From assembly GCA_963674705.1 (NCBI GenBank), contig OY771506.1, forward strand, positions 1,888,001-1,952,000: DNA of 64,000 bases. Direction: 5' to 3'. Shown in pieces: positions 4,000 through 64,000 of the stretch; the first letter of the stretch is position 1, and each line of letters starts with the position of its first letter. The notes beneath the pieces are model-generated. The model was given only the letters and a program-made list of their open reading frames with translations. It was not told where the DNA came from and did no database searches. The translations under genes and the position numbers were made by a program. The DNA comes from Phycisphaeraceae bacterium (GTDB taxonomy: Bacteria > Planctomycetota > Phycisphaerae > Phycisphaerales > Phycisphaeraceae).

Positions 4000-4644
4000 A
4001 TGAAGCCCCGGCCCGCCCAACACGGCTTTACGCTCATCGAGCTGCTTGTGGTCATCTCGATTGTGGCGCTACTGATCAGCCTGTTGCTGCCCGCCTTATC
4101 CGGCGGGCGGCGGGCGGCGGTGCGTGTCCGGGCACACGCGGACCTGCGCTCGATCACCCAGGCGCTTGAGGTCTATCGCAACGATAACAAAGACGATCTG
4201 CCGCCAACCCGTTTTTCATGCAGTTCGCGGACCGCGTACGAGTTGCCGATCGAGCTGATGCAGTACCTGCCGGACAGGAAGCGGGACCTGGTTGATATCA
4301 TCGAGATGCCCGATGTGTACAGCGAAAAGGGTGAAAGCTACCGCTACCGTGCGGTGGGTGATGCGATCCTCAATGAGTACACCTGGCTGAAGAACAGGGC
4401 CTCGCTTTGGGTGCCGGACGGTTTCCCTTACGATGAGCAGGAGACCGGTCAGTATTACTATGACCCGCAGCAGAGCCCCGTGCGTTACGCGGTGTACAGC
4501 CCCGGGCCCGACCCGGGCTCGACGTTCTTCGATATCCCCGGCCGACTACCCGTACCCGAAAAGTACTGGTTGCGGAGCCAGTCTGATGCCGGTGTTGTGG
4601 TGCATATGGAAGACCAATACAGACAGATGCACCTGAGCCCGTAA
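4000..4644 (+). CDS. Prepilin-type N-terminal cleavage/methylation domain protein (type IV pilin/GspG-like)
   Basis: HG/FTLIELLVVISIVALLISLLLPAL and a GspG-like YSPGPD motif. Confidence 0.9.
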   Translation: MKPRPAQHGFTLIELLVVISIVALLISLLLPALSGGRRAAVRVRAHADLRSITQALEVYRNDNKDDLPPTRFSCSSRTAYELPIELMQYLPDRKRDLVDIIEMPDVYSEKGESYRYRAVGDAILNEYTWLKNRASLWVPDGFPYDEQETGQYYYDPQQSPVRYAVYSPGPDPGSTFFDIPGRLPVPEKYWLRSQSDAGVVVHMEDQYRQMHLSP

Positions 4645-35305: not shown

Positions 35306-35875
35306 ATGGGCAAGCGAAATACGTCGCTTCGTGGTTTTACATTGATCGAACTTCTGGTGGTGATCAGCAGCATCACCTTGCTCGTTGGCATCCTCCTGTT
35401 GGCTCTCGGTGCGGCACGTAAAGCCGCTGAAGGCGCACGTTGTCTGGCAAATACACGGTCACTCGGACAAGCTGCTGCGGCTCGCTTCGTTGACACCGGT
35501 GGCGAAGTGCTCGGACCGCTGGAAACCACTTGGATGCAAACCCTTGATGACTACGTCGATGGCTCGATCGATGAAGCACGCATCTGCCCGATAGCTACCG
35601 AACCCGATGAGGACAGTAAAACCAACAACTACTGCTACACCGGATCGGCAGATCATGCCCGGATGACTGATGGCGGGTACACGCTCAATGTTGAAACCTG
35701 GACGTTCATGTCCAGCTACGGCCTGAATGGCTTCTTCTACACGACCAAGGATGTTAATAAGAATGGCAGTGGCTAGGATGAAGCCGGTGTAATGTGGGCC
35801 AACGCATCCGAGTTCGACGAATCATGGTGGCAGACCGAGGGGCGGATCAAAACCACAACCATGTCCCGCCAATAA
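35306..35875 (+). pseudogene. Degenerate prepilin-type protein
   Basis: RG/FTLIELLVVISSITLLVGILLLAL has drifted from the consensus. After CP.A and SYGLNG a TAG occurs at 35774-76, and protein-like sequence continues in frame (DEAGVMWANASEFDESWWQ) before it collapses. Confidence 0.65.
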
Positions 35876-47991: not shown

Positions 47992-49956
47992 ATGAAGCGA
48001 ATAAACCACCGACTGCTTTCATCAACCATGCATCTATATAGATACATCACTGCGTTTGCATTTGCGCTGGCTCTGACGGCGACGCCGCTGTACGCGCAGT
48101 CTTCGATTATGGAACGGCTCGATCAAGGTCTGGTCGCCGTGCCCACGCCGGATGGCATCTTCCTCAGTTGGCGTTTGCTCGCGACCGACGCTCCCGACAC
48201 CGCGTTCAACCTCTACGCCATCGACGACGCCGGCCGAAAGAAACGCCTGAACAACACACCGATCGACGGCCCGACCTGGTTCCTCGATAAACAAAACAAA
48301 GACAACCCGCCCAAGGCTTACGAAGTCTGCCCCATCATCAAAGGTAAAGACGGCACGCCGACCAAGGCACTCTGGTTCAACGATCACGATGGCGAGCATC
48401 CTTACCTGAGCATCCCCCTGCAAACACCCGAAGGTTACGGCCCGAACGACGCATCAGTTGCCGACCTTGATGGGGACGGCGAATACGAAATCATCCTGCA
48501 CCAGGCCGGCACGACCCACGACAACTCGCACTCCGGCATGACCGATCCGCCCATCTTCCAGGCTTACGAACTCGACGGCTCACTGCTCTGGCAGATCAAC
48601 CTCGGCATCAACATCCGTGACGGCGCGCATTACACACAGTTCCTGGTGTACGACTTCGATTGCGACGGGAAAGCCGAGTTTGTGTGTAAAACAGCGGACG
48701 GCACGACCGACGGCGTCGGCAATGTACTCGGTGATAAAAACGCAGACTATCGCGATGAGGGCGGCCGCATCCTCAAAGGCCCGGAATACCTCACCGTTTT
48801 CGACGGCCTGACCGGCAAGGCGCTCGACACCGTCAAGTACATCCCCGGCAGGCATCCCGACACGGATAATCCCACCGGCGACCAACTCAAAGCCGTCTGG
48901 GGCGACAACTATGGCAACCGTAGCGATCGTTTCCTTGCGGCCGTGGCTTATCTCGATGGCAAACACCCGTCGATGGTTTTCTGCCGCGGCTACTACACGC
49001 GCAGCGTCCTCGCCGCGTTCGACTTCGAGAACGGCAAGATCAAGCACCGATGGACGTTCGATTCCGCCAGCGGTAGCGACCGCGACCGCGCTTTTGCCGG
49101 TCAGGGCAATCACAACATTTCCGTTGCCGATGTCGATGATGATGGTAAAGATGAAATCATCTACGGCTCGATGGCGATCGACGATGATGGCCGCGGCCTG
49201 TGGTCTTCTGGTTGGGGCCACGGCGACGCGCTGCACGTCTCGGATATGGACCCCAAACGCAAAGGTCTGGAAGTTTTCGTCCCGCATGAATCATCTAGTC
49301 AGTATGGCGCTTACGCGGTGGCGTACTTCGATGCACGCACGGGCCGACCGATCTGGGGCGTCGTCGGCTCAAAAGATATCGGCAGGGGGGTGGCGTTCGA
49401 TGTCGATCCACGTTTCCCCGGCTACGAGATGTGGGCGTCGTCCGGTATCGGTGGGCTCTACAACGCACGCTCCGCTGAACGTGATGACAAACTCGGACCA
49501 CGCGGCAAGGAAGTCTCGTCCAAACGCCCCGGCATGATCAACTTTGGCATCTGGTGGGATGGCGACCCCTTACGTGAAATGCTCGATGGCAACCACATCG
49601 ACAAGTGGAACTGGCAGACCGAATCCACCGACCGAATGCTGACCGCCACCGGCGCGACAAGCAACAACGGCACCAAAGCCACACCCACCCTTTCCGGTGA
49701 CCTGCTTGGCGACTGGCGCGAAGAAGTCATCCTTCGCGAAGAAGACGGAAATGCAATCAGACTTTACACTACAACCATTCCAACCGACATCCGACTGTTT
49801 ACATTGATGCATGATCGTCAGTATCGCCTCGCTATTGCTTGGCAGAACGTTGCTTACAACCAGCCGCCGCACCCCAGCTTTTTCCTCGGCCACGATATGG
49901 ACCAACCCGATTGGCCCGACATCACAACCCCCGGCAGAAGGGGTAGAATGCGTTGA
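47992..49956 (+). CDS. Rhamnogalacturonan lyase, PL11 (YesW/YesX-like)
   Basis: MERLDQGLVA...FLSWR, NDASVADLDGDG, NIRDGAHYTQF, CRGYYTR, GQGNH, GHGDALH, NGTKATP and YNQPPH. Confidence 0.95.
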   Translation: MKRINHRLLSSTMHLYRYITAFAFALALTATPLYAQSSIMERLDQGLVAVPTPDGIFLSWRLLATDAPDTAFNLYAIDDAGRKKRLNNTPIDGPTWFLDKQNKDNPPKAYEVCPIIKGKDGTPTKALWFNDHDGEHPYLSIPLQTPEGYGPNDASVADLDGDGEYEIILHQAGTTHDNSHSGMTDPPIFQAYELDGSLLWQINLGINIRDGAHYTQFLVYDFDCDGKAEFVCKTADGTTDGVGNVLGDKNADYRDEGGRILKGPEYLTVFDGLTGKALDTVKYIPGRHPDTDNPTGDQLKAVWGDNYGNRSDRFLAAVAYLDGKHPSMVFCRGYYTRSVLAAFDFENGKIKHRWTFDSASGSDRDRAFAGQGNHNISVADVDDDGKDEIIYGSMAIDDDGRGLWSSGWGHGDALHVSDMDPKRKGLEVFVPHESSSQYGAYAVAYFDARTGRPIWGVVGSKDIGRGVAFDVDPRFPGYEMWASSGIGGLYNARSAERDDKLGPRGKEVSSKRPGMINFGIWWDGDPLREMLDGNHIDKWNWQTESTDRMLTATGATSNNGTKATPTLSGDLLGDWREEVILREEDGNAIRLYTTTIPTDIRLFTLMHDRQYRLAIAWQNVAYNQPPHPSFFLGHDMDQPDWPDITTPGRRGRMR

Positions 49957-50025
49957 AATCTTAGGTGTCAGCCACGTCGTTCGGCTGACAGGGCTCTGCC
50001 AGAAATCCACTTTGAGGAAACCCGC

Positions 50026-51513
50026 ATGGGTGCCAAGACCTCCGTCGTCATCTTAGCTCTGCTCAGCGTCGTGCTGGGTTTTATCCAGATGGGCGATCGC
50101 GTTTCGCTCGTGCCTGATGACAAAGTCATACGTCTGAACTTCTGGAACGGATTCACCGGCCCGGACGGCCGAACCATGCTGCACATCATCCGCGAGTTCA
50201 ATGAAGACTATCCCAACATCGAAGTCACCATGCAGCGGATGGAATGGTCGATCTACTTCAACAAGCTTATGGTCGCCGGCATCGACGGCCGTGGGCCGGA
50301 AGTTTTTATATTGCACGCCAGTGAAATGCCACGCTTCCAACGCGCAGGCTTCATGGCAACACTCGATGAAGTCTATGAAGGCGAAGACGCACTACCCGTC
50401 GACGACTTCGATCCCAACCTCCTCAAGCAGATGCGATACGACGGGCACATGATCGGCGTGCCGATGGATATCCACCCGCAGGGGCTTTTCTACAACGCAA
50501 AGATGTTCCGTGAAGCAGGCATCGTTGATGAAAACGGCGTCGCAAAGCCGCCGACCAATCGCGAAGAGTTCATGGATGCGGTCAGAAAATTACGTATCGA
50601 CAAAAACGGCGACGGCCGACCCGAGCAGTGGGGCTTCGCACTGACCATGTGGCGCAACAACTTCACCTCCCTCTTGCCGCAATTCGGCGGTAACTACTTC
50701 GATGAGTCAGGCCAATGTGCCATTGATTCACCGGAGAGTATCGCCGCACTCGAGTTCATGGTTTCACTCGGTGGCGACGATCCGCTCGTGCCCGCTCCGG
50801 AAAATAACCTCGGCTGGGTCGGCTTCCGGCAGAAGAAAGTCGCGATGGTTTTCGAAGGCATCTACATGCTCGGTGACCTCAAGCGGCTTGAGGGCGTGGA
50901 CCGCCAGTTGGAGCGTTTGAAAAGGATGGGTGGCGATCCGAAGCAAATCATAGAGTTGGAAAAGCAAGTGCAACGCTTGCACGAGTTGGAGAGCGAACTG
51001 GAGCAGTTGAAAGGTTCGGATGGCGACCCGAATCGCTTGAAAGAACTGGAAATCGAAGTGGATCGTTTAAAAGGTTTGCAATACATGGCCGCCCCGATGC
51101 CCGTGATCGGCAAGCAGCACGGCACGCATGGCGATTCACATATCCTCTGCTTGCAGAAAGACCTCGATCCGGAGGTTCATGAAGCCGCGATCGCGTTCCT
51201 CAAATTCATCTCCAACCACGACATCCAATGGGCGGATGCAGGCCAGGTTCCCGCTCGTAACAGCGCACGTGAAGCGGAAGTATTCAAGGACATGCAGGTT
51301 CAGTACGCATTCAGTCATCAGATCCCGTATGTGAATTACCCGCCACGTTCACCGGCCGTGTTCGAGTTGCAACAACAGATCGATTTTGCAGTGGAGAAAG
51401 CGTTGCGCCGTCGCGCGACAGCGGAAGAGGCGCTGAAGACCGCACGTAAAAACTTTGAAGACTTCGTACGAAAGGCGGAACTGCCGATGCTGATGGAAGA
51501 GGAGGCGAAGTGA
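50026..51513 (+). CDS. Sugar ABC transporter substrate-binding protein with coiled-coil insertion
   Basis: FWNGFTGPDG, GLFYN, PPTN.EEF, WADAGQVPAR and an N-terminal TM anchor. Confidence 0.92.
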   Translation: MGAKTSVVILALLSVVLGFIQMGDRVSLVPDDKVIRLNFWNGFTGPDGRTMLHIIREFNEDYPNIEVTMQRMEWSIYFNKLMVAGIDGRGPEVFILHASEMPRFQRAGFMATLDEVYEGEDALPVDDFDPNLLKQMRYDGHMIGVPMDIHPQGLFYNAKMFREAGIVDENGVAKPPTNREEFMDAVRKLRIDKNGDGRPEQWGFALTMWRNNFTSLLPQFGGNYFDESGQCAIDSPESIAALEFMVSLGGDDPLVPAPENNLGWVGFRQKKVAMVFEGIYMLGDLKRLEGVDRQLERLKRMGGDPKQIIELEKQVQRLHELESELEQLKGSDGDPNRLKELEIEVDRLKGLQYMAAPMPVIGKQHGTHGDSHILCLQKDLDPEVHEAAIAFLKFISNHDIQWADAGQVPARNSAREAEVFKDMQVQYAFSHQIPYVNYPPRSPAVFELQQQIDFAVEKALRRRATAEEALKTARKNFEDFVRKAELPMLMEEEAK

Positions 51514-52388
51514 TACAACGATTACGTAATGCTTGTGCGTATCTCTTTATCGCGCCGTTCGCGGTGTCGTTCTTCAGCTTTGTCATCCTCCCGTTCTTTG
51601 TCGCGCTCGGGCTGGCGTTTGTGAAGCTGGACCTGACCTCGCACGAGCCGGTCGCATTCGTCGGGCTTAAGAACTTCCAGGAAGCGCTATCCGATCAGTA
51701 CTTCTGGAAAGCCGTGTGGGCGACGTCGTACTTTGTCGTGATGGCGGTGCCCTTGACCGTAGTCCTCTCGACCGCCGTCGCCGTCGGCATGCACAGCATG
51801 ACCAGCAAACGCGGCAGGCACACCGTTCGCGCCATGTTGTTCCTGCCCGGCATGGTCAACGTCGCCGTCGCGGGGATCCTCTGGCAGTGGTTCTATAACG
51901 GCGAGTTCGGCCTGTTCAATCACTACCTACAGGAATGGGGCTTCAGTGGTGTGCCCTGGCTAAGCAACCGAGCAATGGCGATGCCCAGCGTCGTCTTGAT
52001 GACGCTCTGGTGGACGATCGGCGGTTCTGCGATCCTCTTGCTCGCAGCGCTCCAGCAAATCCCCGGCGAACTATGGGAAGCCGCGTCGCTCGACGGCGCC
52101 GGGCCCTGGCAACGTTTGTGGGGAATCTCGCTGCCGTTGATACGCCCCGTCATGCTGTTCGTCACCATCATGACGACGATCGGTTCGTTCCAGGTATTTG
52201 GTCAGCCATATCTGTTAACCCGAGGCGGGCCCGAACTCGCGACACGTGGCGTCGTGCAATACATTTACGAAACCGCATTCAATAACTACCGGCTGGGTTA
52301 CGGCGCCGCGATGAGCTGGCTGCTGTTCGTCATCATCGCGATGTTCTCATTGGTCCAGGTCCGCCTGATGTGGGGGTCGAGGAAATGA
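51510..52388 (+). CDS. Carbohydrate ABC transporter permease
   Basis: FVGLKNF, EAA loop EAASLDGA, SFQVF...T.GGP and GYGAAMS. Confidence 0.95.
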   Translation: MIQRLRNACAYLFIAPFAVSFFSFVILPFFVALGLAFVKLDLTSHEPVAFVGLKNFQEALSDQYFWKAVWATSYFVVMAVPLTVVLSTAVAVGMHSMTSKRGRHTVRAMLFLPGMVNVAVAGILWQWFYNGEFGLFNHYLQEWGFSGVPWLSNRAMAMPSVVLMTLWWTIGGSAILLLAALQQIPGELWEAASLDGAGPWQRLWGISLPLIRPVMLFVTIMTTIGSFQVFGQPYLLTRGGPELATRGVVQYIYETAFNNYRLGYGAAMSWLLFVIIAMFSLVQVRLMWGSRK

Positions 52389-53209
52389 AACTGAAAAAAC
52401 GTTCTGGTATCGACCTGCTCATGTACTTCACCGCGGCTTCATTCGTGCTGCCTCTGATCGTGATGGCGCTGACATCCTTCAAGCCCGAAGGCGAAGTGCT
52501 CAACCCCGAATCCATCATCCCCGACCAATGGACGCTCGCGAACTACAAGCACGTGCTCGGATGGTCGGAAGAAGCGCCGTTTATCCGTTGGTTGATCAAC
52601 AGTATGTTTATCTCGACGACCGTTACGCTGCTCGTACTCGTCTTCTCTTCCATGGCCGCGTTCGCCATCACCCGCCTGAAACTGCCCGGCACCGGTTGGT
52701 TCTTCGGCCTGGTCATCGCGACGATGATGCTGCCCGCGCAGCTCTTCCTCGTCCCGGTCTACCTGATCCTCAGCCGGCTGCACCTGCTTGATACACCTTG
52801 GGCATTAATCATCCCGGCAACATCAGGCGGCTTCGGTGTCTTCCTCATGGCGCAGTTCATGCGTGCGATCCCAAGATCGCTCGAAGAGGCCGCGATGATC
52901 GACGGCTGCTCGAAGCTTGGCGTTTACCTGCATGTCGCGCTGCCGCTCTGCGGACCCGCACTAGCGACGCTCGGCATCTTCACCTTCATCGGCTCGTGGA
53001 ACGACTTCGTAGGCCCGCTTATCTTCCTCGACTCGATCCGTAACTACACGCTGCCCGTCGGTATCGCGCTCTATCAAAGCTCATACGTCACCGAGTACGG
53101 CCTGACGCTCGCGACCAGCGTCCTTGCGACCCTGCCCCTGATCCTCGTCTTCATGGTCTTCCAGAAGCAGATCATCGAGAGCCTGGCGACCTCAGGCATG
53201 AAGGGGTAG
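52385..53209 (+). CDS. Carbohydrate ABC transporter permease
   Basis: IPRSLEEAAMIDG, WNDF and TLPVG. ATGA overlap at 52385. Confidence 0.95.
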   Translation: MKLKKRSGIDLLMYFTAASFVLPLIVMALTSFKPEGEVLNPESIIPDQWTLANYKHVLGWSEEAPFIRWLINSMFISTTVTLLVLVFSSMAAFAITRLKLPGTGWFFGLVIATMMLPAQLFLVPVYLILSRLHLLDTPWALIIPATSGGFGVFLMAQFMRAIPRSLEEAAMIDGCSKLGVYLHVALPLCGPALATLGIFTFIGSWNDFVGPLIFLDSIRNYTLPVGIALYQSSYVTEYGLTLATSVLATLPLILVFMVFQKQIIESLATSGMKG

Positions 53210-53369: not shown

Positions 53370-56300
53370 CTACGCTCTCGGCAACACAATCAGTCGCTGC
53401 GTTTCGCCCGATCCTTTTGTATCCGGGTTGTAATACTCATACGCCTTCGGTGCCGGTGTCGTGATCTTCACCGGCATCGTTGCCTGTAATTGGTATTCCA
53501 GTTCCAGTGTCGCGCCCGGCTTCAAACCACGCAGGTAAACGATCGTGCTGCGTGGCGTCACCTGGTACTTCGAGATGATGTTTTGCTTCACCGCCTGGTC
53601 GAACGAATCACGATTCACCGTGAAACCGGCCGGGACGGGCAGGTCCAGGATCACCATCGGCGCCTCAGCGCTCTGGTTGTTCACCACCGTCGCCTTGGCG
53701 GACAGTACATCACCGACCTCCAGATCGCTGTCATCGTATGCAATGTCGATCGACAACGGCTGCTCTTGCTTGGGCTGCGCCGCATCCTGCACGTGATACC
53801 GGAACACCACCTGGTAGCCACATGCCGTGTCAGTCCGTTCACGCAACACGACCTGGTTCTTCCCGGTCTTCAGGTATTGACTCACATTGATCTGCCGGAT
53901 GACGTCTGATTCCTCCGCGGTCAACGCCAGCGTGTCGACCCGCTCCCCGTTCACCTCAACATCAACCATCCTGCTCTTGCCATCACCCAACGGCTTACCC
54001 GTCCCGGCGAGTAGCGCCTTGAGTGATAGCACCGTCGCCTGAGTCGTGTGCCACGTCCCCCGCGCGTCTTTACGGTTCACCAACCACGCCAACCCCCCGC
54101 GTGTCAGGTCCGGCCGTGTGCCGGATTTGATCAGCGCCAACAGCGCCGTTGCCGTAGTCTCGATTTCACCGCTGCGCCCCATCCCGTAGAAAGTGGTTGG
54201 CGTATTGTTATGCCGATTCCAGAACACAAACTTGCCGTTGCTGCTGATCTGTGCTTCCCGCACAAGCCGTTCCAGGTAAGGCCGTGCATCGTTCCCGCCC
54301 GGGTCGATCGCCAGCAGCGCATTAGCAACCAGCGCCAGCGTGTAAGGATCGTTGATGCTGTTCGCCGAGTGTCGCAACAGGTAATCGCGTGTCTGCGCGG
54401 CGTCCGTCCGGTCGTTCTGGAACACCGCCCAGGCAATGTACGCCGTCGTGGATAGTTCAAGATAATTCATACTGGTCGGGTCCTGATGCATTCGATTGCC
54501 AGGATACTTCCAACCGCCATCCCTTCCACGCTGCTGCATCAGCCACCGACGTGTACGTTTGATCAGTTCAGGATCAACATCATGCACGCGCGCCATGTCC
54601 TGGAACTCCATCAGGCCATAAGCTGTGAGTGTGCGGTTGGCAGGCGGACGCCCGAACCAATCGAATCCACCGCCAGCCACCTCAAAACCAAGCAGCCGTT
54701 GATACCCCAGGTGGATGTACTGCTGCGCCTTGGCTTCAACCTCCGGCGCGTTCTTATTCATCTTGCGCAGGTAATCCAGCGCCAGCACGTTCGGATACGT
54801 CGTCGATGAAGTCTGCTCGAAGCAGCCGTAAGGCCGTTGGAAGATCGCATCCAAACCCTCCACGACCTGGCTGAAACTCGACGGGTACAGTTTAACAACT
54901 GCAACCACGCTGCCATCGATCGCATCGCTCGGCACATCCAGTTCGATCTGTCCCGGCTCTTCCAGCGAGCCGTTCACTACCTGCTCGATCTTCCGCCCGT
55001 CAGGACGAACCTCGATCTCGCGACGGATCGCATCCGACAGATCGCTGCCATCAGCACGGACCTTGACTTCATGATCGCCCACGCGCATCACCCGGATCGG
55101 GCAATGAATCGAACGCACCTCGCCCGGCTCAAGCGATAATTCAAAACGCGCATCTCCCAGGAACTCAAACCAGTCCCCGCCGCTTACCATGATAGACACG
55201 TCCTGTTGTTTATCCAGATAGTTGTAGACCACGATAGGCAGGCCCACCTCGTCCCCGCGCGTCATCGATACCGGCAAATCCAGGTCGACAAAGAACGGCT
55301 GGAACACGCGCAGCGCCGACGTTTCACCGCCAAGCCGGCCATCCGCGGTCACGGCGCTGGCGCTCAGACGCCAGCTCGTGATCGAATCCGCCAACGGCAC
55401 ATCCAGTTGCACGATTCCCCGATCATCCGTGATCAACTCCGGCCGCCAAAGCAACGTCTCGGGGAACCACTGCCGCACACGCACGGGTTGCTGACCGGTG
55501 GATGTCTTCTGATTGACGGCGCCGCGATCTTCCAACGATTCCAGGCCGATGGCCATTTGACGCAGTTCAGACATAGCCACTAAGGAACGTGCCGAATGCC
55601 GCGCCGCGCCGAGCGCCGGTAGCAGGATCCCCACCAGCAGCGCGATGATGGACACGACAAACAGGTATTCAATAATCGTCGGTCGCCTGCCCGAGCCCGG
55701 CAGCATAACAATTAGCAGGTAGATCAACACGATGAATAGCAACACCCCGATGATGCTCCATAGGGTATTGATCGTGTTTAAACCTCTGCGCCGCTCTGCA
55801 GCGATCCGTTGCTCCTTGGAAGGATACGTGCGCGTCTGGAGCGAATACAGGCCGTCCGATTCCCCGCGAAGTATCGCGATGACATCTTCCGAAACCATGC
55901 CATCCAGGCTCTCAAGTGCCTGCTCAAAATAAGGCGAATCGATCGCGTCCAGCATATCGGGCGAGATCATCCCCTCATCCACCAACTGCTGAAGCAAAGC
56001 GTCTCGGCTGCTGCCGACCTGTTGCACCGTCGAGGCGAACAGCGCCAGCTCCAGCATCCTGCGGTCGGATTCTTTCGCTGTGAGAAAAACGCTCGGCGAC
56101 CAGTGGTAGATCGCGTACACCGGCTGCAGCAGTTCCTGCTCCAGGCTGAAGAATGTCTTTTCTGATCCCGGTGATTGCGTCAACACGCTGAAAACAGACT
56201 CATCCACAGCAGCGAGACTGATGGCCCCCCGGATGGGGCTGCCATCAGTCCCGGTTAGTTTGAGCCGCAGGCTCGCCGTCTCACCCGGGCGATACACCTG

Positions 56301-58169
56301 CTTGTCCGTTTCCGCGCTGATCCGCACTTCGTTCGCCTGATCGACATAGATTGTCCGCGACTTTTGCACGGGCAAGCCCGCCGAACCGAAGCGGTATGTC
56401 ACCACCCGGATCGTCCCGGACATCTCGGCCGGCAGATCGAATGCGTACTTGCCTTGCCCGTTCTCGATCGCGATCGATTCGGTCAACAGCGTCTGATCGT
56501 CTTTGATCAGGTCCAGGAAGATCGGCGCGTTACCGCTGCCGACCGCTTCGATCGAAACCGTTTCACCCCCTCGATACACCGCTTTATCCGTCCGCACGAT
56601 GTAGTCATCGTTGGCCTTGCCCAATTCGAGTTGTTTCGTCTCCTGTACGCTCAAACCCGCTTCGTCTGTTGCGCGGACCGTCAGGTGCAACTGTCGTGAC
56701 ATCGGCGTCAGCCGGATTGTCGCGACACCCAGCGAATTGGTCTGGACCTCGTAAGGCACACCCGTGACCGCGAGCCGCGTCTGCGCGGGTTGGCCGTCCG
56801 CATACGTCGTGATGACATACACGCGGTTCTCAACATTACGTACCAGGCTCCCGCTTTCCGGGATCACCTGCACGCGCAGCGGTCGATTCGTCACCAGCCT
56901 GCGGATCTCGCGCGTCTGCACCTGTTCGGCAGAATCCGTCACCTTCAGCCAAACCGTCATCCGCGCGTCGCCGCCGTCCTGCTCCCTGCCGAAGAGCTTG
57001 TCAGGCAGACGCACCTCGAACACCGCCGTCCCGTCCGCATCCGTCTTCAAACTCGGCACCTGAATGATCTGTTTATATGCCCCAGCAAAGCCAACCTCCA
57101 CCTCAACACGTGCGCCGGCAACGGGCTTGCCGAAGAAGTAATCCACATCCACCTTGCCGTACACCACGTCCCCGGGTAAGTAGTAGCTGCGATCAAGCTC
57201 CATCTCCACGCGAAACTTCGGCAGCACGTATTCACGCACCTCGACCGTGTTCGCCGACTCCGTGTCGCCGACTTTGCACCGGACCGTGTACGCACCGTGC
57301 AGGATCTCATCGGCCAACGCACAATCGATCGACGCGATGCCGAATTCGCTGGTCACCCCGGTCTTGCGCAGGATGACGTTGCCCTTCGGATCACTCACCG
57401 AAAACTCAACCGATTCACCCGCGACCGGCTTAAGGTCCGGCTTACGCAACGCAAGCGATCGGCAGTGGATCGTCTGGCCCGGCTGATACACGGGCTTATC
57501 CGTACTCACCATCAACTTCCAACTGCGCGTCAGCTTGATGGTGCGCGTCAGTTCTTCTTTTCCCTCACGGCCGCGCGCAACGACTTTCAGTTCATAATCG
57601 CCGGAGGCCCAATCGGGTAGATCAAAACGCGGATTCCCGCTGCCGGTCGCATCGGTTTTAAAGCTTACAAGCTCGACCGATTCGCCCGTCCTCGGGTTAC
57701 TCAAAACGACATCAACCGATGCGTCGGGCACGACCGCGCCCGATTCATAATTAGTCAGCACGATCCGGATCGACCCGCTCGTTCCGCCCTGCAGCGTGCT
57801 TTGTCCCATGACACGCAGGTCGTACGGATTCGGCGCAAGGTTCAGGTAATACACGTTAAGCGTGAACAGGATCAATATTGAAGCCGCGACAGCCGCCGCC
57901 GCCGTCCACCTGACACCCCGACGCCAATGCATCTGTGCCTGTGCTTTGTTATTCACCTGGGTGATCGTCCGCTCAATCAGTCCGCTGGGCGCTTCAACCA
58001 CGGGCACCTGCTGCATCGCTTCAAACCGCTGAACCGCGTTTTGGTAGGCCAGCTTCCAGACCTCATCCTCGTCGATCATCCGCTCGACGTAAGCGATATC
58101 CTTCGCCGACAGCAGCCCGTGCAGGTACGCATCGGTCATGTAAACCGGGTTGTCTCTTTGGTCAGTCAT
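53370..58169 (-). CDS. Membrane-anchored alpha-2-macroglobulin family protein with N-terminal anti-sigma-like domain and internal pilin-like TM hairpin
   Basis: TDKPVYQPG, EYVLPKF, AAVDESVF, VRQWFPETLLW, DSITSW, QPFFV.L.LP and thioester PYGCFEQ. Receptor-binding-like end (DLPVPAGF, AYEYYNP). The ATG at 58169 overlaps the sigma stop. Confidence 0.93.
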   Translation of the reverse strand: MTDQRDNPVYMTDAYLHGLLSAKDIAYVERMIDEDEVWKLAYQNAVQRFEAMQQVPVVEAPSGLIERTITQVNNKAQAQMHWRRGVRWTAAAAVAASILILFTLNVYYLNLAPNPYDLRVMGQSTLQGGTSGSIRIVLTNYESGAVVPDASVDVVLSNPRTGESVELVSFKTDATGSGNPRFDLPDWASGDYELKVVARGREGKEELTRTIKLTRSWKLMVSTDKPVYQPGQTIHCRSLALRKPDLKPVAGESVEFSVSDPKGNVILRKTGVTSEFGIASIDCALADEILHGAYTVRCKVGDTESANTVEVREYVLPKFRVEMELDRSYYLPGDVVYGKVDVDYFFGKPVAGARVEVEVGFAGAYKQIIQVPSLKTDADGTAVFEVRLPDKLFGREQDGGDARMTVWLKVTDSAEQVQTREIRRLVTNRPLRVQVIPESGSLVRNVENRVYVITTYADGQPAQTRLAVTGVPYEVQTNSLGVATIRLTPMSRQLHLTVRATDEAGLSVQETKQLELGKANDDYIVRTDKAVYRGGETVSIEAVGSGNAPIFLDLIKDDQTLLTESIAIENGQGKYAFDLPAEMSGTIRVVTYRFGSAGLPVQKSRTIYVDQANEVRISAETDKQVYRPGETASLRLKLTGTDGSPIRGAISLAAVDESVFSVLTQSPGSEKTFFSLEQELLQPVYAIYHWSPSVFLTAKESDRRMLELALFASTVQQVGSSRDALLQQLVDEGMISPDMLDAIDSPYFEQALESLDGMVSEDVIAILRGESDGLYSLQTRTYPSKEQRIAAERRRGLNTINTLWSIIGVLLFIVLIYLLIVMLPGSGRRPTIIEYLFVVSIIALLVGILLPALGAARHSARSLVAMSELRQMAIGLESLEDRGAVNQKTSTGQQPVRVRQWFPETLLWRPELITDDRGIVQLDVPLADSITSWRLSASAVTADGRLGGETSALRVFQPFFVDLDLPVSMTRGDEVGLPIVVYNYLDKQQDVSIMVSGGDWFEFLGDARFELSLEPGEVRSIHCPIRVMRVGDHEVKVRADGSDLSDAIRREIEVRPDGRKIEQVVNGSLEEPGQIELDVPSDAIDGSVVAVVKLYPSSFSQVVEGLDAIFQRPYGCFEQTSSTTYPNVLALDYLRKMNKNAPEVEAKAQQYIHLGYQRLLGFEVAGGGFDWFGRPPANRTLTAYGLMEFQDMARVHDVDPELIKRTRRWLMQQRGRDGGWKYPGNRMHQDPTSMNYLELSTTAYIAWAVFQNDRTDAAQTRDYLLRHSANSINDPYTLALVANALLAIDPGGNDARPYLERLVREAQISSNGKFVFWNRHNNTPTTFYGMGRSGEIETTATALLALIKSGTRPDLTRGGLAWLVNRKDARGTWHTTQATVLSLKALLAGTGKPLGDGKSRMVDVEVNGERVDTLALTAEESDVIRQINVSQYLKTGKNQVVLRERTDTACGYQVVFRYHVQDAAQPKQEQPLSIDIAYDDSDLEVGDVLSAKATVVNNQSAEAPMVILDLPVPAGFTVNRDSFDQAVKQNIISKYQVTPRSTIVYLRGLKPGATLELEYQLQATMPVKITTPAPKAYEYYNPDTKGSGETQRLIVLPRA

Positions 58170-58791
58170 TGCTTGGCTCCGTGCTTGCCGACCACTGGCT
58201 CGATACATACGAGGACAGGGGGCGGCGAAGAGCCTTCAAGGCTTGGTGCATGTGAGCACGAATAGTCGATTCCCGCAGGCCGTAACACTCGGCGATCTCC
58301 GCGTAAGGCATGCAACACCAGATACGCATCACCACCACCGCCCGTTGTTTCTCCGGCAGCTTCAGCACAGCCTGCTCCACGATCTCGGTCGATTCATCTC
58401 GGATCAGCGCGTCAACCGGATCGTTGTCTGCCGTGTTGTCGGCCGGTTCATCCAGCTCGAACGTCGTCGTGATGAACCGCCGCGTTATCTTCCGCCGCAG
58501 CCGCGACCTGCAGGCATTGCGCGCGATCTGGAAGACCCATGGCCTGAACTTGCTGCCCCGCTTGTAGGTCTTGCGTTTCGTCCAGACGGCCATGAAGACT
58601 TCCTGGAATATTTCTTCGCTCTCCGCGTAGTTGCCCATCATCCGACAGATAAATGTCAGCAACGGATTGGCGTACCGACGAACCAGCGGATCGAGTTTCT
58701 CGGATTGCCCACTGGCGACCCGGCCCATCAGCGATTCGTCGGATTCGTGTGCGTGTGTCAGTTGCATATGACGCGGTGGTCCTTCACTCAT
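58162..58791 (-). CDS. ECF (sigma-70 group 4) RNA polymerase sigma factor
   Basis: SDESLM, EEIFQEVFMAVW, FRPWVFQIARN and LPEKQRAVVVMR....PYAEIA....ESTIR. The start may be at 58767. Confidence 0.93.
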   Translation of the reverse strand: MSEGPPRHMQLTHAHESDESLMGRVASGQSEKLDPLVRRYANPLLTFICRMMGNYAESEEIFQEVFMAVWTKRKTYKRGSKFRPWVFQIARNACRSRLRRKITRRFITTTFELDEPADNTADNDPVDALIRDESTEIVEQAVLKLPEKQRAVVVMRIWCCMPYAEIAECYGLRESTIRAHMHQALKALRRPLSSYVSSQWSASTEPSND

Positions 58792-58955
58792 GGATATGCG
58801 CATGGACCGCAAAGCGCGTAGCCAAACCCCGTGTTTGACCCGGTAAATAGCCATAATAGTAGTGGATTCAGGTGTTTACCGACATCAAAAAAATTACCCG
58901 GATGCTTGCACGTTTTTGAGATCGGTCCGGGAGCATCGCTTAGGCGCAAGCATAT

Positions 58956-59021: not shown

Positions 59022-61547
59022 TTACGGGATGATCCGTATGACGGAAAGCGAATGCGCCGGCGCTTCATACGAAAGCTCGGGCTGAACCGGTATCGCCTTC
59101 GTCTTCGGCACAACGATCTCAGGTTCTTCCATCGTGTTTGTCGCCATCGGATCGCCGGCGAGTACCGTCAGGTTAGCGACCTTCGTCTCCGTGACCCACT
59201 GACTCAGGTCGACCTTCAGCGGGTATGCCTTGTCGCTGACGTTGACGATCTTGACCATCAGTTCCCCGGTCTGAGCGCGCCGGACCGCCGATGCATACAA
59301 CGGCACGGGCAAGGTGAATGCCTGTGCTTCAATCTCATGCACCAGTTCATCATCCAGGTAGCATCGCACCTTTTCGCCCTGCACTTCGATGCGGATGTCG
59401 TACCAGCGGCCGGTTTCGATCTGACCTTGCACTGCGCGCCCGTATTCATCACCGCCACCGCCGGACGTTATTTTTTCAATCGCGTGTCGGCTGTTGCCCC
59501 ATCCGCCGAGGTTCCACCAGTAGTATTGATCCTTGCTCGAACGCTTGAAACCGATCAGGAAACCTTCGTGCCCTCCAAGCTTGCGGGCACGAAGTGAGAT
59601 CGTGTATTCACCGGCGGGTGGTTCGATGTTCAATACGGATAACGCCGGCTGGTGCCTTTCGTTCTGGCGGTACGCACCAGCTTCCACGTGCCAATCGCCG
59701 GATGTAACCGTCCAGTTCTTCGGTTCACCCTCAAAGGTTTCCTCCGCGATCACCTTATCGCCGCTCGTGATCCGCACATCGTCATATTCCGACTGCGTGC
59801 CCCACGTGCCCAGCAGCACGCCTTCGCCTTGCAACTGTTCAGGCTGAAGCGACTGATCGAACTCACTTTGAATGTAGTAGTCGCCGCCGTTGAGGCTGAA
59901 TAACTGCTGCACGTAATAGTTGGCGGTGCGCAGGATGCGCTGGTTGTCGAAGTAGATCATGTTCGGGTTCCATTGCGTCCGCCCGATCTTGCCGAGCATC
60001 GGTGCATAGGAACTGAACCGAACGATATCCGCGTTGCGCTCGAGAGCCGTCAGGTAAGCCGCTTCGGCAAGCGCCGAACGCAGCGTGTTACGCCTGCCCA
60101 CATCATGCGCCGCGTATTCCCCGAGATAAACCGTCGGCCCGGTACGCGGATATTGATCGTAAAAATCGTTGTGTGTCAGGAACCAGTCCGGCGCGACGTA
60201 GTAATGCTCATCGACCATGTCGATGTCAAGCTCGCGCGCGATCTTCCAGCCTTGCTCATAATCGTAACCCGCCCAGAACGGCCCGCTCGTACCGATTACG
60301 GTAATCTCAGGATGCTTCGCCTTCACCGCCGCGTTGAGCATCGCAAAACGTTCGCGGAACACGTCTGTGATCTGATCCTCGTTACCCACGCCGATATACT
60401 TCAGATTAAACGGTTCAGGATGCCCGGCCGCGGCACGCTTCGCGCCCCACTGCGAATCCGCAGGTCCGTTCGCCCATTCGATCAGGTCCAGTATCTCCTG
60501 AACGTATGCATCCATCTCCTCCATCGGGATGCCGCGCTGCCCATGCCCCCAATCGCCGCGTGAGTTCTGGCAACACACACCCGCCGGTACGACAGGCAAC
60601 GGCTCCGCGCCCATGTCTTCACAGAACTGGAAGTACTCGTAATAACCCAGCCCGTATGTCTGATGATACCCCCAGATATTGCGCTGTCCCTTGCGCTGCT
60701 CGACCGGGCCGATCGTGTCTTTCCAGCGATACATGTTGTCTAAACCGTTGCCGTGCGCGACACACCCGCCGGGGAACCGCATGAACTTCGGCTTAAGGTC
60801 CGCGATCGTCTGCGCCAGGTCCGCACGCAAACCGTTTCGATGATTCATAAACGTCTTGCGCGGGAATAGCGACACCATGTCCACCGCCGTTTTGCCGTTG
60901 CCTTGAAACTCGATCACGAGCGTCGCGTTGTCCGCCGCCTTCGTCGCCTTCAGGCTTGTTTGATACTGCTTCCAGTTGCCCCCGATATTGGGTAGCTTCG
61001 CAACCGCCAGCACATCACCATCAGATGAAACCAGCTTCACACGCATCGGCCTCAGCCCACCCTCGATTTGCCGGGCGAAAACCGAGAAGTCATACGCCTC
61101 CTTGGCTTTCAGTGGCATCCCTTGGAACCCTTCATTCACCAGGCTAAGCGTTTCGGTCGTGTCTTTCTTTTCAACAACCAGGTAATGCGGGTTGTTCGTG
61201 TCCAGCGGCTCGTCCGATTCGACCTTGATCGAACCCTTGCCCTCTTCCACACCCTTCATCGACCACGCGGTCAACGGCTCGAACCTTGGATTATCCGCAT
61301 GGCTGAACTCGAACGAACGGTTACGCACCAATTCTGCATACAGTCCGCCGTCCGCCGCATAATTGATGTCTTCATAGAAGATGCCGATCAGGTCCGGGCT
61401 GATCGACTTTTCCTGCTTCGAGATCGTCAGCGTGATCGGCTCGCTCTTCGCCGCGTCGGTCTGCGCCTCGGCATGCATCGCACAACCTAACAAGACAGAA
61501 CCTGTGAGAACAGCCAGCGACGCAAACATTTGGGTGCTTGTCTTCAT
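59022..61547 (-). CDS. Alpha-L-arabinofuranosidase, GH51, with CBM-like and inserted beta-sandwich domains
   Basis: GIFYEDINYAADGGLYAELV.NRSFE, RFPGGC, GVGNE (acid/base), DEHYY, LGEYA (nucleophile) and LERNAD.V..SYAP. Confidence 0.94.
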   Translation of the reverse strand: MKTSTQMFASLAVLTGSVLLGCAMHAEAQTDAAKSEPITLTISKQEKSISPDLIGIFYEDINYAADGGLYAELVRNRSFEFSHADNPRFEPLTAWSMKGVEEGKGSIKVESDEPLDTNNPHYLVVEKKDTTETLSLVNEGFQGMPLKAKEAYDFSVFARQIEGGLRPMRVKLVSSDGDVLAVAKLPNIGGNWKQYQTSLKATKAADNATLVIEFQGNGKTAVDMVSLFPRKTFMNHRNGLRADLAQTIADLKPKFMRFPGGCVAHGNGLDNMYRWKDTIGPVEQRKGQRNIWGYHQTYGLGYYEYFQFCEDMGAEPLPVVPAGVCCQNSRGDWGHGQRGIPMEEMDAYVQEILDLIEWANGPADSQWGAKRAAAGHPEPFNLKYIGVGNEDQITDVFRERFAMLNAAVKAKHPEITVIGTSGPFWAGYDYEQGWKIARELDIDMVDEHYYVAPDWFLTHNDFYDQYPRTGPTVYLGEYAAHDVGRRNTLRSALAEAAYLTALERNADIVRFSSYAPMLGKIGRTQWNPNMIYFDNQRILRTANYYVQQLFSLNGGDYYIQSEFDQSLQPEQLQGEGVLLGTWGTQSEYDDVRITSGDKVIAEETFEGEPKNWTVTSGDWHVEAGAYRQNERHQPALSVLNIEPPAGEYTISLRARKLGGHEGFLIGFKRSSKDQYYWWNLGGWGNSRHAIEKITSGGGGDEYGRAVQGQIETGRWYDIRIEVQGEKVRCYLDDELVHEIEAQAFTLPVPLYASAVRRAQTGELMVKIVNVSDKAYPLKVDLSQWVTETKVANLTVLAGDPMATNTMEEPEIVVPKTKAIPVQPELSYEAPAHSLSVIRIIP

Positions 61548-61678
61548 GTTGAATCTTTGTGTTAATGTTGGTTGTCGTTGAGTATCATTACAACACAGCG
61601 TTGCACGCCGATGCCCCGCACGGCGTCGACAGTACAGCCATCAATCAAAACGAATCGCATCCTCCAAGTATAGCAGCG

Positions 61679-64000
61679 TTACTGCTCCTTGATCCATACC
61701 TTTGATACCGGCCCCTGCTCATCCTTCTTGATCCGGTTGCTGCGAGCGTAGAAGGGGATCGCCTGTAAGTCGCTGCCGTCCGCCCATTTGCCCGTGATCA
61801 CCATCACCCCGCCCAGCAGGTTCGGCTTCCACTGCGTGCTCAACTCGGCATCGCTCGCAAGCGCTTTATCCAACGGCTGGTCCGCGCTCTCGAACGTGTA
61901 GATCAAAGGCCCGTACCGTAGCGCCACCTGCCCGCGCGTCGCTGCGATCTTTTCAGACGCATGGATACGCTGAATCTTCATCGGCAACTCAAACTCGACC
62001 GTGTCGCCTTGCTCCCACATCCGGTCGATCACCGCGTAGCCGTTCTCGATTGCCGGCTCGATCGTTTCGCCGTTCAGCTTGATCCACAAGATGCCATCCG
62101 CATCAGGTTCAGCATCATACAGTTCACTGACATCGCGCACCGGTCGGCGTATATGCAGCGCAAACTTACTTGCTTTGCCGGGATTCACCGTCAGTTTGAT
62201 GTTTCCGTCCCACGGATAATCCGTTTTCTGCACCATCTTCACGTCCGTCCCGCCGACGCCCGTCACGGTGATCGTGCTGCCGACGAACATATTCACATAA
62301 ATATCGCTGGCATCCTTGGCATACATCCACGTCGGCAGCATCAACAGCACACGCGGGATGTTCCCCACGCAGCACGGGCAGACGTGCCAGGGATACCGCG
62401 CCCCGTGCTCGGTTAGCGCGTTCGTGTAATAGAAGTTGTTGCCGTCCTGATCGAGCGAACCAAGCAGCGCGTTGAACAACGTCTCTTCGTAAAGGTCCGC
62501 GTACTTCGCTTCGTGGTACGCCATCGTGAGCTTGTGCTCGAAGTAAATCAATCCGCAGCTCGAGCACGATTCGCAATACGCTTCATGCCGAAGCGAATAG
62601 TCCGGCCCGAAGCCTTCCGACGTTTCGCCGCTGCCGATCCCGCCGGTCACGTAGTATTTGCGGTTGATCATGTTGTCGAACAGGCTCATCACCGCGCTCT
62701 GGTAATCGATGTCCTGCGTCTCCATCGCGACATCTGACATGCCCGCGTAGTTGTACGAGGCACGCACCGCATGCCCGACCGCTTCGTACTGTTGTGTCAC
62801 CGGCACGTGGCTCTGTGAATATTCATTCCCGCCCGATCGGCAATCCAGCAGGAACTTGGCAAGCGCGATGTACTTATCTCCCTTGCCGTCGCCTTCGACC
62901 GTGTTCACGAAACGCCCGAAGCGCACCAGCGCCATCTCCATCGCCTGGTGCTCATCCCACCACCTCTGCTTCGGCGGCGGGCCGATCTGCGCTTCCCAGC
63001 AATCCGCCAGCTTCTTCGCCGCGTTGTACAGCCGAAGGTCTTTCCCGCCGGTCATCATGTAGTGCGACACCGCCGCCTCAAGGAAGTAACCCGCGACGTA
63101 CCCTTCGTGATATGTCCGGTACTTATCCGACCAGCGTTTTCGATCCGGGTGCAGCGTGAACGCCGTCTGTAAATACCCGTCCGGTTCTTGCGCCGCGAGG
63201 ATCTTCGGGATCCAGTCTTCCAGCGTGTCGTGCATCTTCTGCTGCACCGCGATCATCATCTGATCGCCTTGCGGATCGAGCATCTGCGCAACGCACATCG
63301 CCTCGATCGTGTTGTAAACCCACGCGTTGGAGAAGATGTACCCGCGGTGCTTCTCTGCATTTTCGCCGCGCAGTTTCTTCGCCGCCTCGACGAAGTTGTT
63401 GATCCCGCCTTCTTTCAGATCGGGCTTGCTGATCGTGTCGATGCAGTGGGGAATCCAGTTTACGATGATCGACCTGGCCCTCTGATTCCAAAGCGGGCTG
63501 TCGATCTTGTAAGGCATCGTATCGACCGGGCTCAGGTTCTCCGCAGGCGGGCCGTGCACGACTGTGACATGCAGCGTGTCTGCTGTCGTTTCTCCGTTCT
63601 GCGTGGCCATGAGTTGCAGTTCGTATTCGCCAGGCTCGCTGAATGTCGCGGTTGTGTCAACATCGCCGCTATCGGCAAACGTCACCACGCCCGGCCCGGA
63701 AACCTTGCTCCACTGAATATCACAATCACCGGATAGCGCGGATACATCGCCGCCCAGGTACGTCTTGCCGTTCAGCATGACCGAGCGGTCCGCATTGGCC
63801 TTGACCCGCGGCGGGAATGTCGACGACTTACCGCTGTCAAACACTTTCCATTCGAGGATGCCTGTGGAGAATTCTTCGTTGCCATCGATCTCAAGACGCA
63901 GTCTGGTCGTGATGACCTCTTCAAAGCTAAGGTCGTTCCACTGATCACGCTCGACGCCGATCGCGCCGCTCGCCTTGACCGGCTTGAACGCTTCGCCGTC
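61679..64000 (-). CDS. Beta-L-arabinofuranosidase GH127 with PKD-like and discoidin-like N-terminal domains (partial, start beyond the window)
   Basis: HEGY.AG, AVGHAVRA, YVTGGIG, YCESCSSC, YEETLFN and CPCCVGN. The frame stays open to 64000 (…TTRLRLEI…ILEWKVFD…WSKVSGPG). Confidence 0.92.
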   Translation of the reverse strand, partial: DGEAFKPVKASGAIGVERDQWNDLSFEEVITTRLRLEIDGNEEFSTGILEWKVFDSGKSSTFPPRVKANADRSVMLNGKTYLGGDVSALSGDCDIQWSKVSGPGVVTFADSGDVDTTATFSEPGEYELQLMATQNGETTADTLHVTVVHGPPAENLSPVDTMPYKIDSPLWNQRARSIIVNWIPHCIDTISKPDLKEGGINNFVEAAKKLRGENAEKHRGYIFSNAWVYNTIEAMCVAQMLDPQGDQMMIAVQQKMHDTLEDWIPKILAAQEPDGYLQTAFTLHPDRKRWSDKYRTYHEGYVAGYFLEAAVSHYMMTGGKDLRLYNAAKKLADCWEAQIGPPPKQRWWDEHQAMEMALVRFGRFVNTVEGDGKGDKYIALAKFLLDCRSGGNEYSQSHVPVTQQYEAVGHAVRASYNYAGMSDVAMETQDIDYQSAVMSLFDNMINRKYYVTGGIGSGETSEGFGPDYSLRHEAYCESCSSCGLIYFEHKLTMAYHEAKYADLYEETLFNALLGSLDQDGNNFYYTNALTEHGARYPWHVCPCCVGNIPRVLLMLPTWMYAKDASDIYVNMFVGSTITVTGVGGTDVKMVQKTDYPWDGNIKLTVNPGKASKFALHIRRPVRDVSELYDAEPDADGILWIKLNGETIEPAIENGYAVIDRMWEQGDTVEFELPMKIQRIHASEKIAATRGQVALRYGPLIYTFESADQPLDKALASDAELSTQWKPNLLGGVMVITGKWADGSDLQAIPFYARSNRIKKDEQGPVSKVWIKEQ

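Follow-up and report, generated by a model that had tools for sequence, protein, structure and literature searches.

A CD109-like thioester protein of a planctomycete with a prepilin-type helix between its LNK region and probable bait and a putative anti-sigma domain

A single gene in the 64,000-nucleotide stretch of a Phycisphaeraceae genome analysed here (hereafter, the window) encodes a 1612-aa thioester protein whose trigger region is interrupted by a predicted membrane hairpin, the second helix of which is homologous to the prepilins of the same genome. The protein is a real, conserved variant of the thioester-protein family and is undescribed as far as our literature searches reach. The explanation that we favor, tentatively and with slightly less than even confidence, is that this CD109/TEP-like protein crosses the inner membrane in three predicted passes, is the likely anti-sigma factor of the adjacent ECF sigma factor, and has its bait tethered by a non-cleavable copy of a host prepilin helix; that is, it would be a protease trap that signals to the ECF.

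Results

A bacterial thioester protein closest to CD109

The anti-sigma/CD109-like thioester protein is encoded by a single ORF at 53370..58208 on the minus strand (as are its parts, the ECF gene and the candidate promoter given below), with its likely start at M14 (58169), overlapping the stop codon of the ECF gene. Pfam finds the full A2M domain series in it (MG series, CUB-TED, and MG8). MG1 to the first half of MG6 (56214..57833), including the channel motif Y327-P330 (57219-57230), are assigned by Pfam, AlphaFold2 and conservation, and the LNK region with a small helical domain (55827..56213) by AlphaFold2 helices and by its position between the MG6 halves; the thioester domain (PF07678; 54012..54881) and the MG8/receptor-binding-type domain (PF07677, PF17973; 53412..53756) follow. 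In comparison with the sequences of solved structures in the PDB, CD109 is the best relative (E 2e-62), with human A2M, A2ML1 and TEP1 also matching, while YfhM of E. coli is a much weaker match (E 2e-18) and the type I bacterial A2Ms (YfhM/ECAM, Salmonella A2M) match only at E 1e-18 to 1e-16. CD109 and C3 also take the top Foldseek ranks (TM-score 0.59) for an AlphaFold2 model of residues 90-1100 (pLDDT 81, pTM 0.68, 47 sequences in the alignment).

The thioester motif CxEQ is found in all 103 aligned homologues and reads C1129-F-E-Q1132 in the window copy (54813-54824). H1241 (54486-54488), conserved in 88/103 homologues, aligns with a His of CD109, and we take it to be the catalytic His by equivalence with that of C3. 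A thioester-associated His of this kind is described in PMC9156758. The protein is a member of the A2M/thioester-protein superfamily and resembles CD109/TEP1 far more than it does YfhM of E. coli; judging from its motifs, thioester formation and the trapping of proteases after a cut in the bait are its predicted functions. The N-terminal lipoprotein anchor, a feature of type I bacterial A2Ms, is absent, the N-terminus consisting of a ~95-aa soluble domain followed by a TM, and no PBP1c occurs among the recurrent neighbour clusters listed, the neighbours in the window being the ECF gene on one side and, on the other, an ABC permease gene in convergent orientation. The C-terminal half matches 83/301 genomes of the phylum at E<=1e-40, with no member of the same class among the 16 listed.

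The wider surroundings of the gene are not recurrent in relatives: a sugar ABC transporter operon (47992-53209, plus strand) converges on the A2M gene, and an alpha-L-arabinofuranosidase gene and another glycosidase-like gene (59022-63844, minus strand) lie upstream of the ECF.

A predicted membrane hairpin in the MG6 insert

A sequence-only reading of the window had placed an insert of ~235 aa with a TM, a basic loop and a pilin-like helix between the motifs AAVDESVF and VRQWFPET, and our analysis bears this out: the insert is 237 aa long (the motifs lie at residues 666 and 911), splits MG6, and contains the three elements at residues 816-891. Hydropathy peaks at residues 98-125 (KD 1.94), 809-842 (3.16) and 842-872 (2.77). 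The first of these peaks is TM1 (57834..57917), predicted from hydropathy to run from inside to outside, which is hydrophobic in 103/103 homologues with a median of 5 K/R ahead of it. Within the insert, a long helix (residues 795-836; 55701..55826) recognised by hydropathy, conservation and AlphaFold2 ends in TM2 (816-836), which is predicted to run from outside to inside and carries an invariant W817. It is followed by a short basic loop (55683..55700; pLDDT <50), predicted to be cytoplasmic, with at least one K/R in 98/103 homologues and, in the window copy, without the G|F site of prepilin peptidase. The proposal of the sequence-only reading, that the chain passes the membrane three times and exposes both A2M halves on the outer side, fits the hydropathy and the positive-inside rule, this being a topology predicted purely from hydropathy and charge.

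The two hydrophobic halves of the hairpin are present in 102/103 aligned full-length homologues, an alignment that was retrieved with the insert as query and is hence biased toward hairpin carriers. We ruled out that the hairpin is the product of a chimeric assembly based on this recurrence, on the 526 homologues that the insert finds at E<=1e-3 (the best 120 of the 526 being listed, at ~40% identity), and on contig X3, from another study, which covers 55200-56400 unbroken with 60 substitutions and 0 gaps.

The probable bait follows the hairpin and precedes a conserved plug

In the AlphaFold2 model, helix 795-835 leads through a low-confidence loop into a continuous helix, 845-891, that gives way to disorder at 893-914. 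The stretch of residues 892-910 (55479..55535) is disordered (pLDDT <50 at 893-914), poorly conserved and hypervariable, and is probably the true bait. Directly behind it lies R912-x-W-F-P916 (55461..55475), in which R912 and P916 are invariant in 103 homologues and which we regard as the counterpart of the trigger plug of A2ML1. According to section 13 of PMC9156758, this trigger consists of a plug, Arg730-Pro734, held in a channel lined by Tyr214-Pro217. The residues of both the channel motif (Y327-P330) and the plug (R912-P916) are invariant or at least 90% conserved. Comparison with the closest relative, P0002 (96% identical), reveals a steep contrast along the segment, with 6/19 differences in the disordered stretch and 3/8 at pilin positions 1-8 vs. 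0/41 at pilin positions 9-49.

The disorder after the helix and the fast evolution of that stretch indicate that the hairpin was inserted between the LNK region and a surviving bait. Accordingly, the suggestion that the hairpin puts the bait itself in the membrane is not supported, given that the disordered, fast-evolving stretch comes after the pilin helix and immediately before the conserved plug. By the predicted structure, the hairpin occupies the position of the anaphylatoxin domain of C3, and the bait is predicted to be external, with the pilin helix linking it to the membrane. The helix is thus likely to be not the bait but the inner-membrane anchor of a trap that senses proteases.

The second hairpin helix derives from DUF1559 prepilins

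Residues 843-891 (55536..55682) correspond to a pilin alpha-1 helix of the DUF1559/prepilin type, comprising TM3 and an outer stalk, as indicated by matches within the genome, homologues and AlphaFold2. In the pilin register, P843 is position +1, E847 is E5 and P864 is P22. The helix matches 77 other places in the same genome at E<=1e-3, the best with 60-70% identity. The resemblance to the pilin N-termini at 4000 and 35306 that had first been noticed is real, but these two are among the weakest matches (44% and 51%). They belong to a set of 88 prepilin motifs in the host genome that share a common lineage signature after P22, two of which fall in the window (4000-4644 and 35306-35776). The embedded helix follows the consensus of the 88 motifs from position 2 to about 33, except at positions +1, 3, 6, 8, 10, 29 and 32, and departs from it also at Cys36. 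The Pfam N_methyl scan gave no match on the window helix; PF07596 matches at the position of the helix in many homologues. On sequence grounds, the embedded helix is derived from DUF1559 prepilins (N_methyl plus SBP_bac_10). Prepilins of this type are heavily expanded in Planctomycetales, according to PMC8567305.

Type IV prepilin features present in the window copy are E5, the hydrophobic alpha-1 and P22, and those missing are an N-terminal class III leader with G|F and a globular head, the helix ending at 891 in disorder. The earlier observations that E5 is kept and that R|P replaces G|F at the peptidase site are both correct for the window copy (E847). Among 192 prepilin-type segments placed in register, 93 keep E5, 11 have F1, 2 have G|F, 11 have a permissive site ([GAS]|[FMLIV]xxxE) and 3 have Cys36, the latter being present in 166/198 host pilins. 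The host genome has two matches to A24 prepilin peptidases. Based on these counts, the helix is mostly not a substrate of prepilin peptidase, and release of the thioester half by this enzyme, one of the routes entertained previously, would be a minority route at most. Natural split genes that start with an intact prepilin were also sought and rejected, with none among the 120 shorter matches listed of 1351, and no intact leader was seen to head a separate C-terminal half either, G|F being absent from all 32 shorter matches compared. Features needed solely by real pilins (G|F, Cys36) have been dropped, which counts in favor of a non-cleavable mimic. Two observations described next, that the helix tracks its host and that two further pilin modules occupy this slot in relatives, add to the support for such a mimic.

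The helix matches the prepilins of its host

The set used to assess host tracking comprised 11 genomes, two having been dropped (one without the helix and one with a single usable pilin). For positions 20-36 of the embedded helix, the prepilins of its own genome rank first in 7/11 cases, and those of its own lineage group in 10/11. None of 20000 permutations reaches the observed value, although only about four independent lineages stand behind this result. Matching between helix and host is shown at the level of sequence comparison, with selection and recurrent conversion as its candidate causes. In this set, G007 and G008 were grouped with Verrucomicrobiota by their pilins, against the titles of their records.

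Recent gene conversion from one pilin gene was considered and rejected, as no donor exceeds ~80% over 87 nt (DNA identity of the helix to its best paralogue is ~80%). On the core tree (FastTree), the signature of the helix clusters with some nesting, requiring 10 changes vs. a minimum of 4 and a shuffled mean of 41.5. The nesting suggests that the helix may have been replaced several times following horizontal transfer, but simple co-divergence was not rejected by the AU test with 32 rows (p 0.163). A grouping of P0001 with Pirellulaceae rows in an early tree was gone in a later one. The titles of L045 and L046 (the loci of G007 and G008), L022 and L027 (Acidiferrales, Saccharimonadales, Alcaligenaceae) conflict with their positions in the A2M tree, and those of G007 and G008 also with their own prepilin sets; these are possibly mislabelled records or transfers.

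Other modules fill the same slot in relatives

To describe the slot across the family, homologues from several searches were pooled and dereplicated into 350 slot segments, of which 195 are prepilin-type (192 of these being the segments put in register above), 15 Flp-type, 6 lipobox-like under a strict rule, 99 other TM, 13 GspG-like and 22 other TM-less. In the sample retrieved by thioester motifs, which is unbiased by the insert, the DUF1559-type helix occurs in just 11 to 13 of 30 clade loci. A helix resembling Flp/Tad pilins forms the second hairpin TM in P0215, P0255, P0325 and P0252 and, more weakly, in L021, L022, L026-L028 and L035. Flp-type segments were called by a custom HMM built from 10 host Flp pilins at a cut-off of >7 bits (the maximum in 355 membrane-protein controls being 4.3); Pfam Flp_Fap gave 0 matches among 14 candidate proteins.

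The head of the pseudopilin GspG lies in the bait slot of L040, L044, L068, L069, L074 and other TM-less loci, which come from Armatimonadota, Acidobacteriota and other phyla; PF08334 matches 20/31 TM-less loci at E<0.05, 11 of them over the Pfam cut-off. The Acidobacteriota copies with a GspG head also carry a carboxypeptidase-regulatory-like domain. A model of L068 (GspG-type) shows a long helix and short strands, its fold search being dominated by MG domains and uninformative on the insert. In Chloroflexota and others the number of TMs is four to seven, with a six-TM form in Chloroflexota. A lipobox-like sequence, which may be an internal site for signal peptidase II, terminates the final TM of the slot in L019, L031, L052, L050 and L083. 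None of the module types seen has lost the disordered bait.

An ECF sigma factor and a putative anti-sigma domain

The ECF gene (58162..58854; true start probably 58767) encodes sigma70 regions 2 and 4 (PF04542, PF08281). The N-terminal domain of the thioester protein (57918..58169) is cytoplasmic and anti-sigma-like by prediction: HxxxCxxC is found within the N-terminal 85 aa of 89/103 homologues, and zf-HC2 matches (E<0.1) in 8/14 relatives, 3 of them over the cut-off. In the window copy, the zinc ligands have been lost, with neither HxxxCxxC nor a zf-HC2 match. The layout is that of an anti-sigma factor, i.e., a cytoplasmic domain, then a TM, in a gene behind the ECF. Thioester motifs retrieved 80 loci, 32 of which form a clade titled mostly Planctomycetota (6/32 without upstream DNA). 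An ECF is directly upstream in 23/26 clade loci that have upstream DNA, vs. an ECF match in only 2/48 loci outside the clade (and a third by blastp). The small subclade of L018, L023 and L032 has no upstream ECF, and L023 also has no anti-sigma domain. Sequence and gene order suggest that the protein likely serves as anti-sigma factor to the neighbouring ECF, which its N-terminal domain would bind and inhibit. Four loci outside the clade (L039, L045, L046 and L060, two of them titled Verrucomicrobiota) have the pilin helix without an ECF or anti-sigma domain, and hence the helix is not needed for signalling.

A promoter motif with the consensus TTCAACR-N13-GCGCATA precedes the ECF in 15/22 relatives, which is consistent with autoregulation. 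Its candidate counterpart in the window (58795..58821; 6.7 bits) has an intact -10 (GCGCATA) and a degenerate -35. No regulon of the ECF emerged from the host genome (44 motif sites, about the number expected by chance) or from 16 other genomes, where 5 extra exact sites vs. 5 control matches do not constitute evidence. Three extra sites (L267, L268 and L270) precede genes of exported proteins, one a vWA lipoprotein, the number of such sites being at chance level.

A TGA codon at the thioester position

The codon of the thioester Cys, TGC in the window copy, is an in-frame TGA in 13/30 loci (L215, L218, L220-L223, L225, L227-L231 and L234), where it is the only stop within about 700 aa. selA is present in 12/13 genomes of the TGA type vs. 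10/17 of the Cys type, and a stable hairpin lies behind the TGA (mean z -2.7 vs. synonymous recodings, compared to -0.1 for Cys copies). RNAalifold found no consensus stem behind these codons. TGA at this position likely encodes selenocysteine, giving a selenoester. The host genome has selA (C1:1813216-1814586).

Discussion

Under our preferred explanation, a periplasmic protease would cut the disordered stretch 893-910, after which the plug would retract, by analogy with A2ML1 and C3, and the exposed thioester would tag the protease or a nearby surface. ECFs can be released by regulated proteolysis of their anti-sigma factors, and, by analogy, the altered ectodomain may license proteolysis of TM1, release of the ECF and upregulation of its own operon. 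Structurally, the pilin helix would stand in for the anaphylatoxin of C3 or for an N-terminal bait, and its pilin likeness may have been kept to place the trap among the membrane pilin pool or the type IV filament machines or, alternatively, to disguise the trap before an attacker. We count in favor of this explanation the CD109-like matches, the conservation of plug and channel, the AlphaFold2 layout, the linkage to an ECF with its promoter, the host match, the loss of pilin-only features and the presence of several pilin modules in one slot. Against it count that the pilin helix is optional (as the clade loci and the 99/350 segments with an unrecognisable TM attest), that E5 is kept in under half of the segments, that host tracking rests with about four lineages and an AU p of 0.163, that the four loci outside the clade carry the helix with neither ECF nor anti-sigma domain, that the window copy has neither zinc ligands nor a good -35, and that a regulon was not found in the host genome.

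The main rival keeps the trap and sensor but makes the helix a mere N-in/C-out signal anchor whose pilin identity has no function, abundant prepilin genes continuing to overwrite the segment. We consider this unlikely on balance, yet it deserves serious weight: potential donors are plentiful (the 88 prepilin motifs of the host genome and dozens in others), lipobox-like and plain TMs fill the slot as well, pilin positions 1-8 drift (the 3/8 differences to P0002) and E5 is lost in half, and the host match would be explained nearly as well as by the preferred explanation. However, Flp donors are few (2-7 per genome) and yet used, the form with a GspG head is entirely TM-less, there is no near-identical donor at the DNA level, and positions 9-49 are unchanged (0/41) where the bait has changed (6/19). 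A less probable alternative, which we regard as improbable, is a contact of the pilin module with the assembly platform or with pilins inside the membrane; a pull or a stall would then take the place of proteolysis in tripping the plug or the anti-sigma domain, with the ECF reporting on filament assembly. Three pilin-family modules in one slot, host-matched sequence in TM and outer stalk alike, and the precedents of PilS, which senses pilin, and of pilin-triggered AlgU activation speak for this; on the other hand, genes for type IV filament assembly are not among the recurrent neighbours (scattered prepilin genes occur in four loci), and a disordered bait is retained throughout while the plug model requires a cut. 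Finally, the routes of the sequence-only reading, in which an intramembrane protease cuts a membrane bait or prepilin peptidase splits the chain into a pilin-anchored thioester half (an analogue of C3 furin processing), appear very improbable: 11/192 segments keep a permissive site and 2 keep G|F (e.g., P0248), and lipobox-like ends in some relatives would permit a similar split by signal peptidase II, but the site is missing in the window copy and 181/192, intact-leader halves are missing as described above, and cleavage at the cytoplasmic face would keep the helix membrane-embedded and, under the plug model, would leave the plug unfreed.

Returning to the protease trap, a bolder extension, which we consider doubtful at present, is that complement-like sensors of one family are widespread in bacteria and that pilin parts were recruited into their trigger slot three times (DUF1559 helix, Flp helix and GspG head), host-matched as a self-decoy or docking tag. 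If the pilin pool came under attack or failed, a C3-like thioester (a selenoester in some members) would be tripped and, in Planctomycetota, the ECF switched on; this family would perhaps be the bacterial sister of animal CD109/TEP.

Wiegand et al. 2020, who reportedly define 30 planctomycete ECF groups, may describe this ECF. In the re-classification of ECFs in PMC7826278, the word "macroglobulin" is absent from the main text and one supplement. In searches of paper listings and the openings of abstracts, we found no A2M fused to an anti-sigma domain, no pilin segments in an A2M and no selenocysteine thioester protein. If our explanation is true, this would be a signal-transducing thioester protein, with a complement-like trap joined to transcription, a design that we did not find in print. 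It would also open an initial, testable way into the question of why DUF1559 prepilins are maintained by the dozens to hundreds in planctomycetes, since something in the cell appears to copy their helix. Further, the origin of the A2M/complement family is placed in early animals by PMC9156758, and a CD109-like family that spans many phyla of bacteria and retains intact the trigger motifs of the animal proteins bears on this origin, either direction of transfer being possible.

With CD109, A2ML1, insect TEP1 and C3, the window protein shares the order of domains, the split MG6 with LNK and bait insert, CxEQ, the aligned His, and the plug and channel motifs; in contrast to them, it is bacterial and has an N-terminal anti-sigma domain and TM, and where C3 has its anaphylatoxin domain it has a pilin-helix membrane hairpin between LNK and bait. 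Type I bacterial A2Ms (YfhM/ECAM) are likewise thioester proteins of the envelope that carry a bait region and are attached to the inner membrane (PMC5764988), but the window protein has internal TMs instead of a lipoprotein anchor and an ECF instead of PBP1c as its neighbour. Planctomycete DUF1559 prepilins share with the embedded helix an alpha-1 segment bearing E5 and P22 as well as the outer motif specific to the lineage; the embedded helix differs in being internal and without G|F, Cys36 and head domain. Lastly, zf-HC2 class I anti-sigma factors resemble the window protein in their short cytoplasmic domain of the HxxxCxxC type, one TM, a gene behind the ECF and a conserved upstream promoter motif, whereas here the zinc ligands are lost in the window copy and sensing would fall to a thioester trap of 1500 aa that contains two additional TMs.
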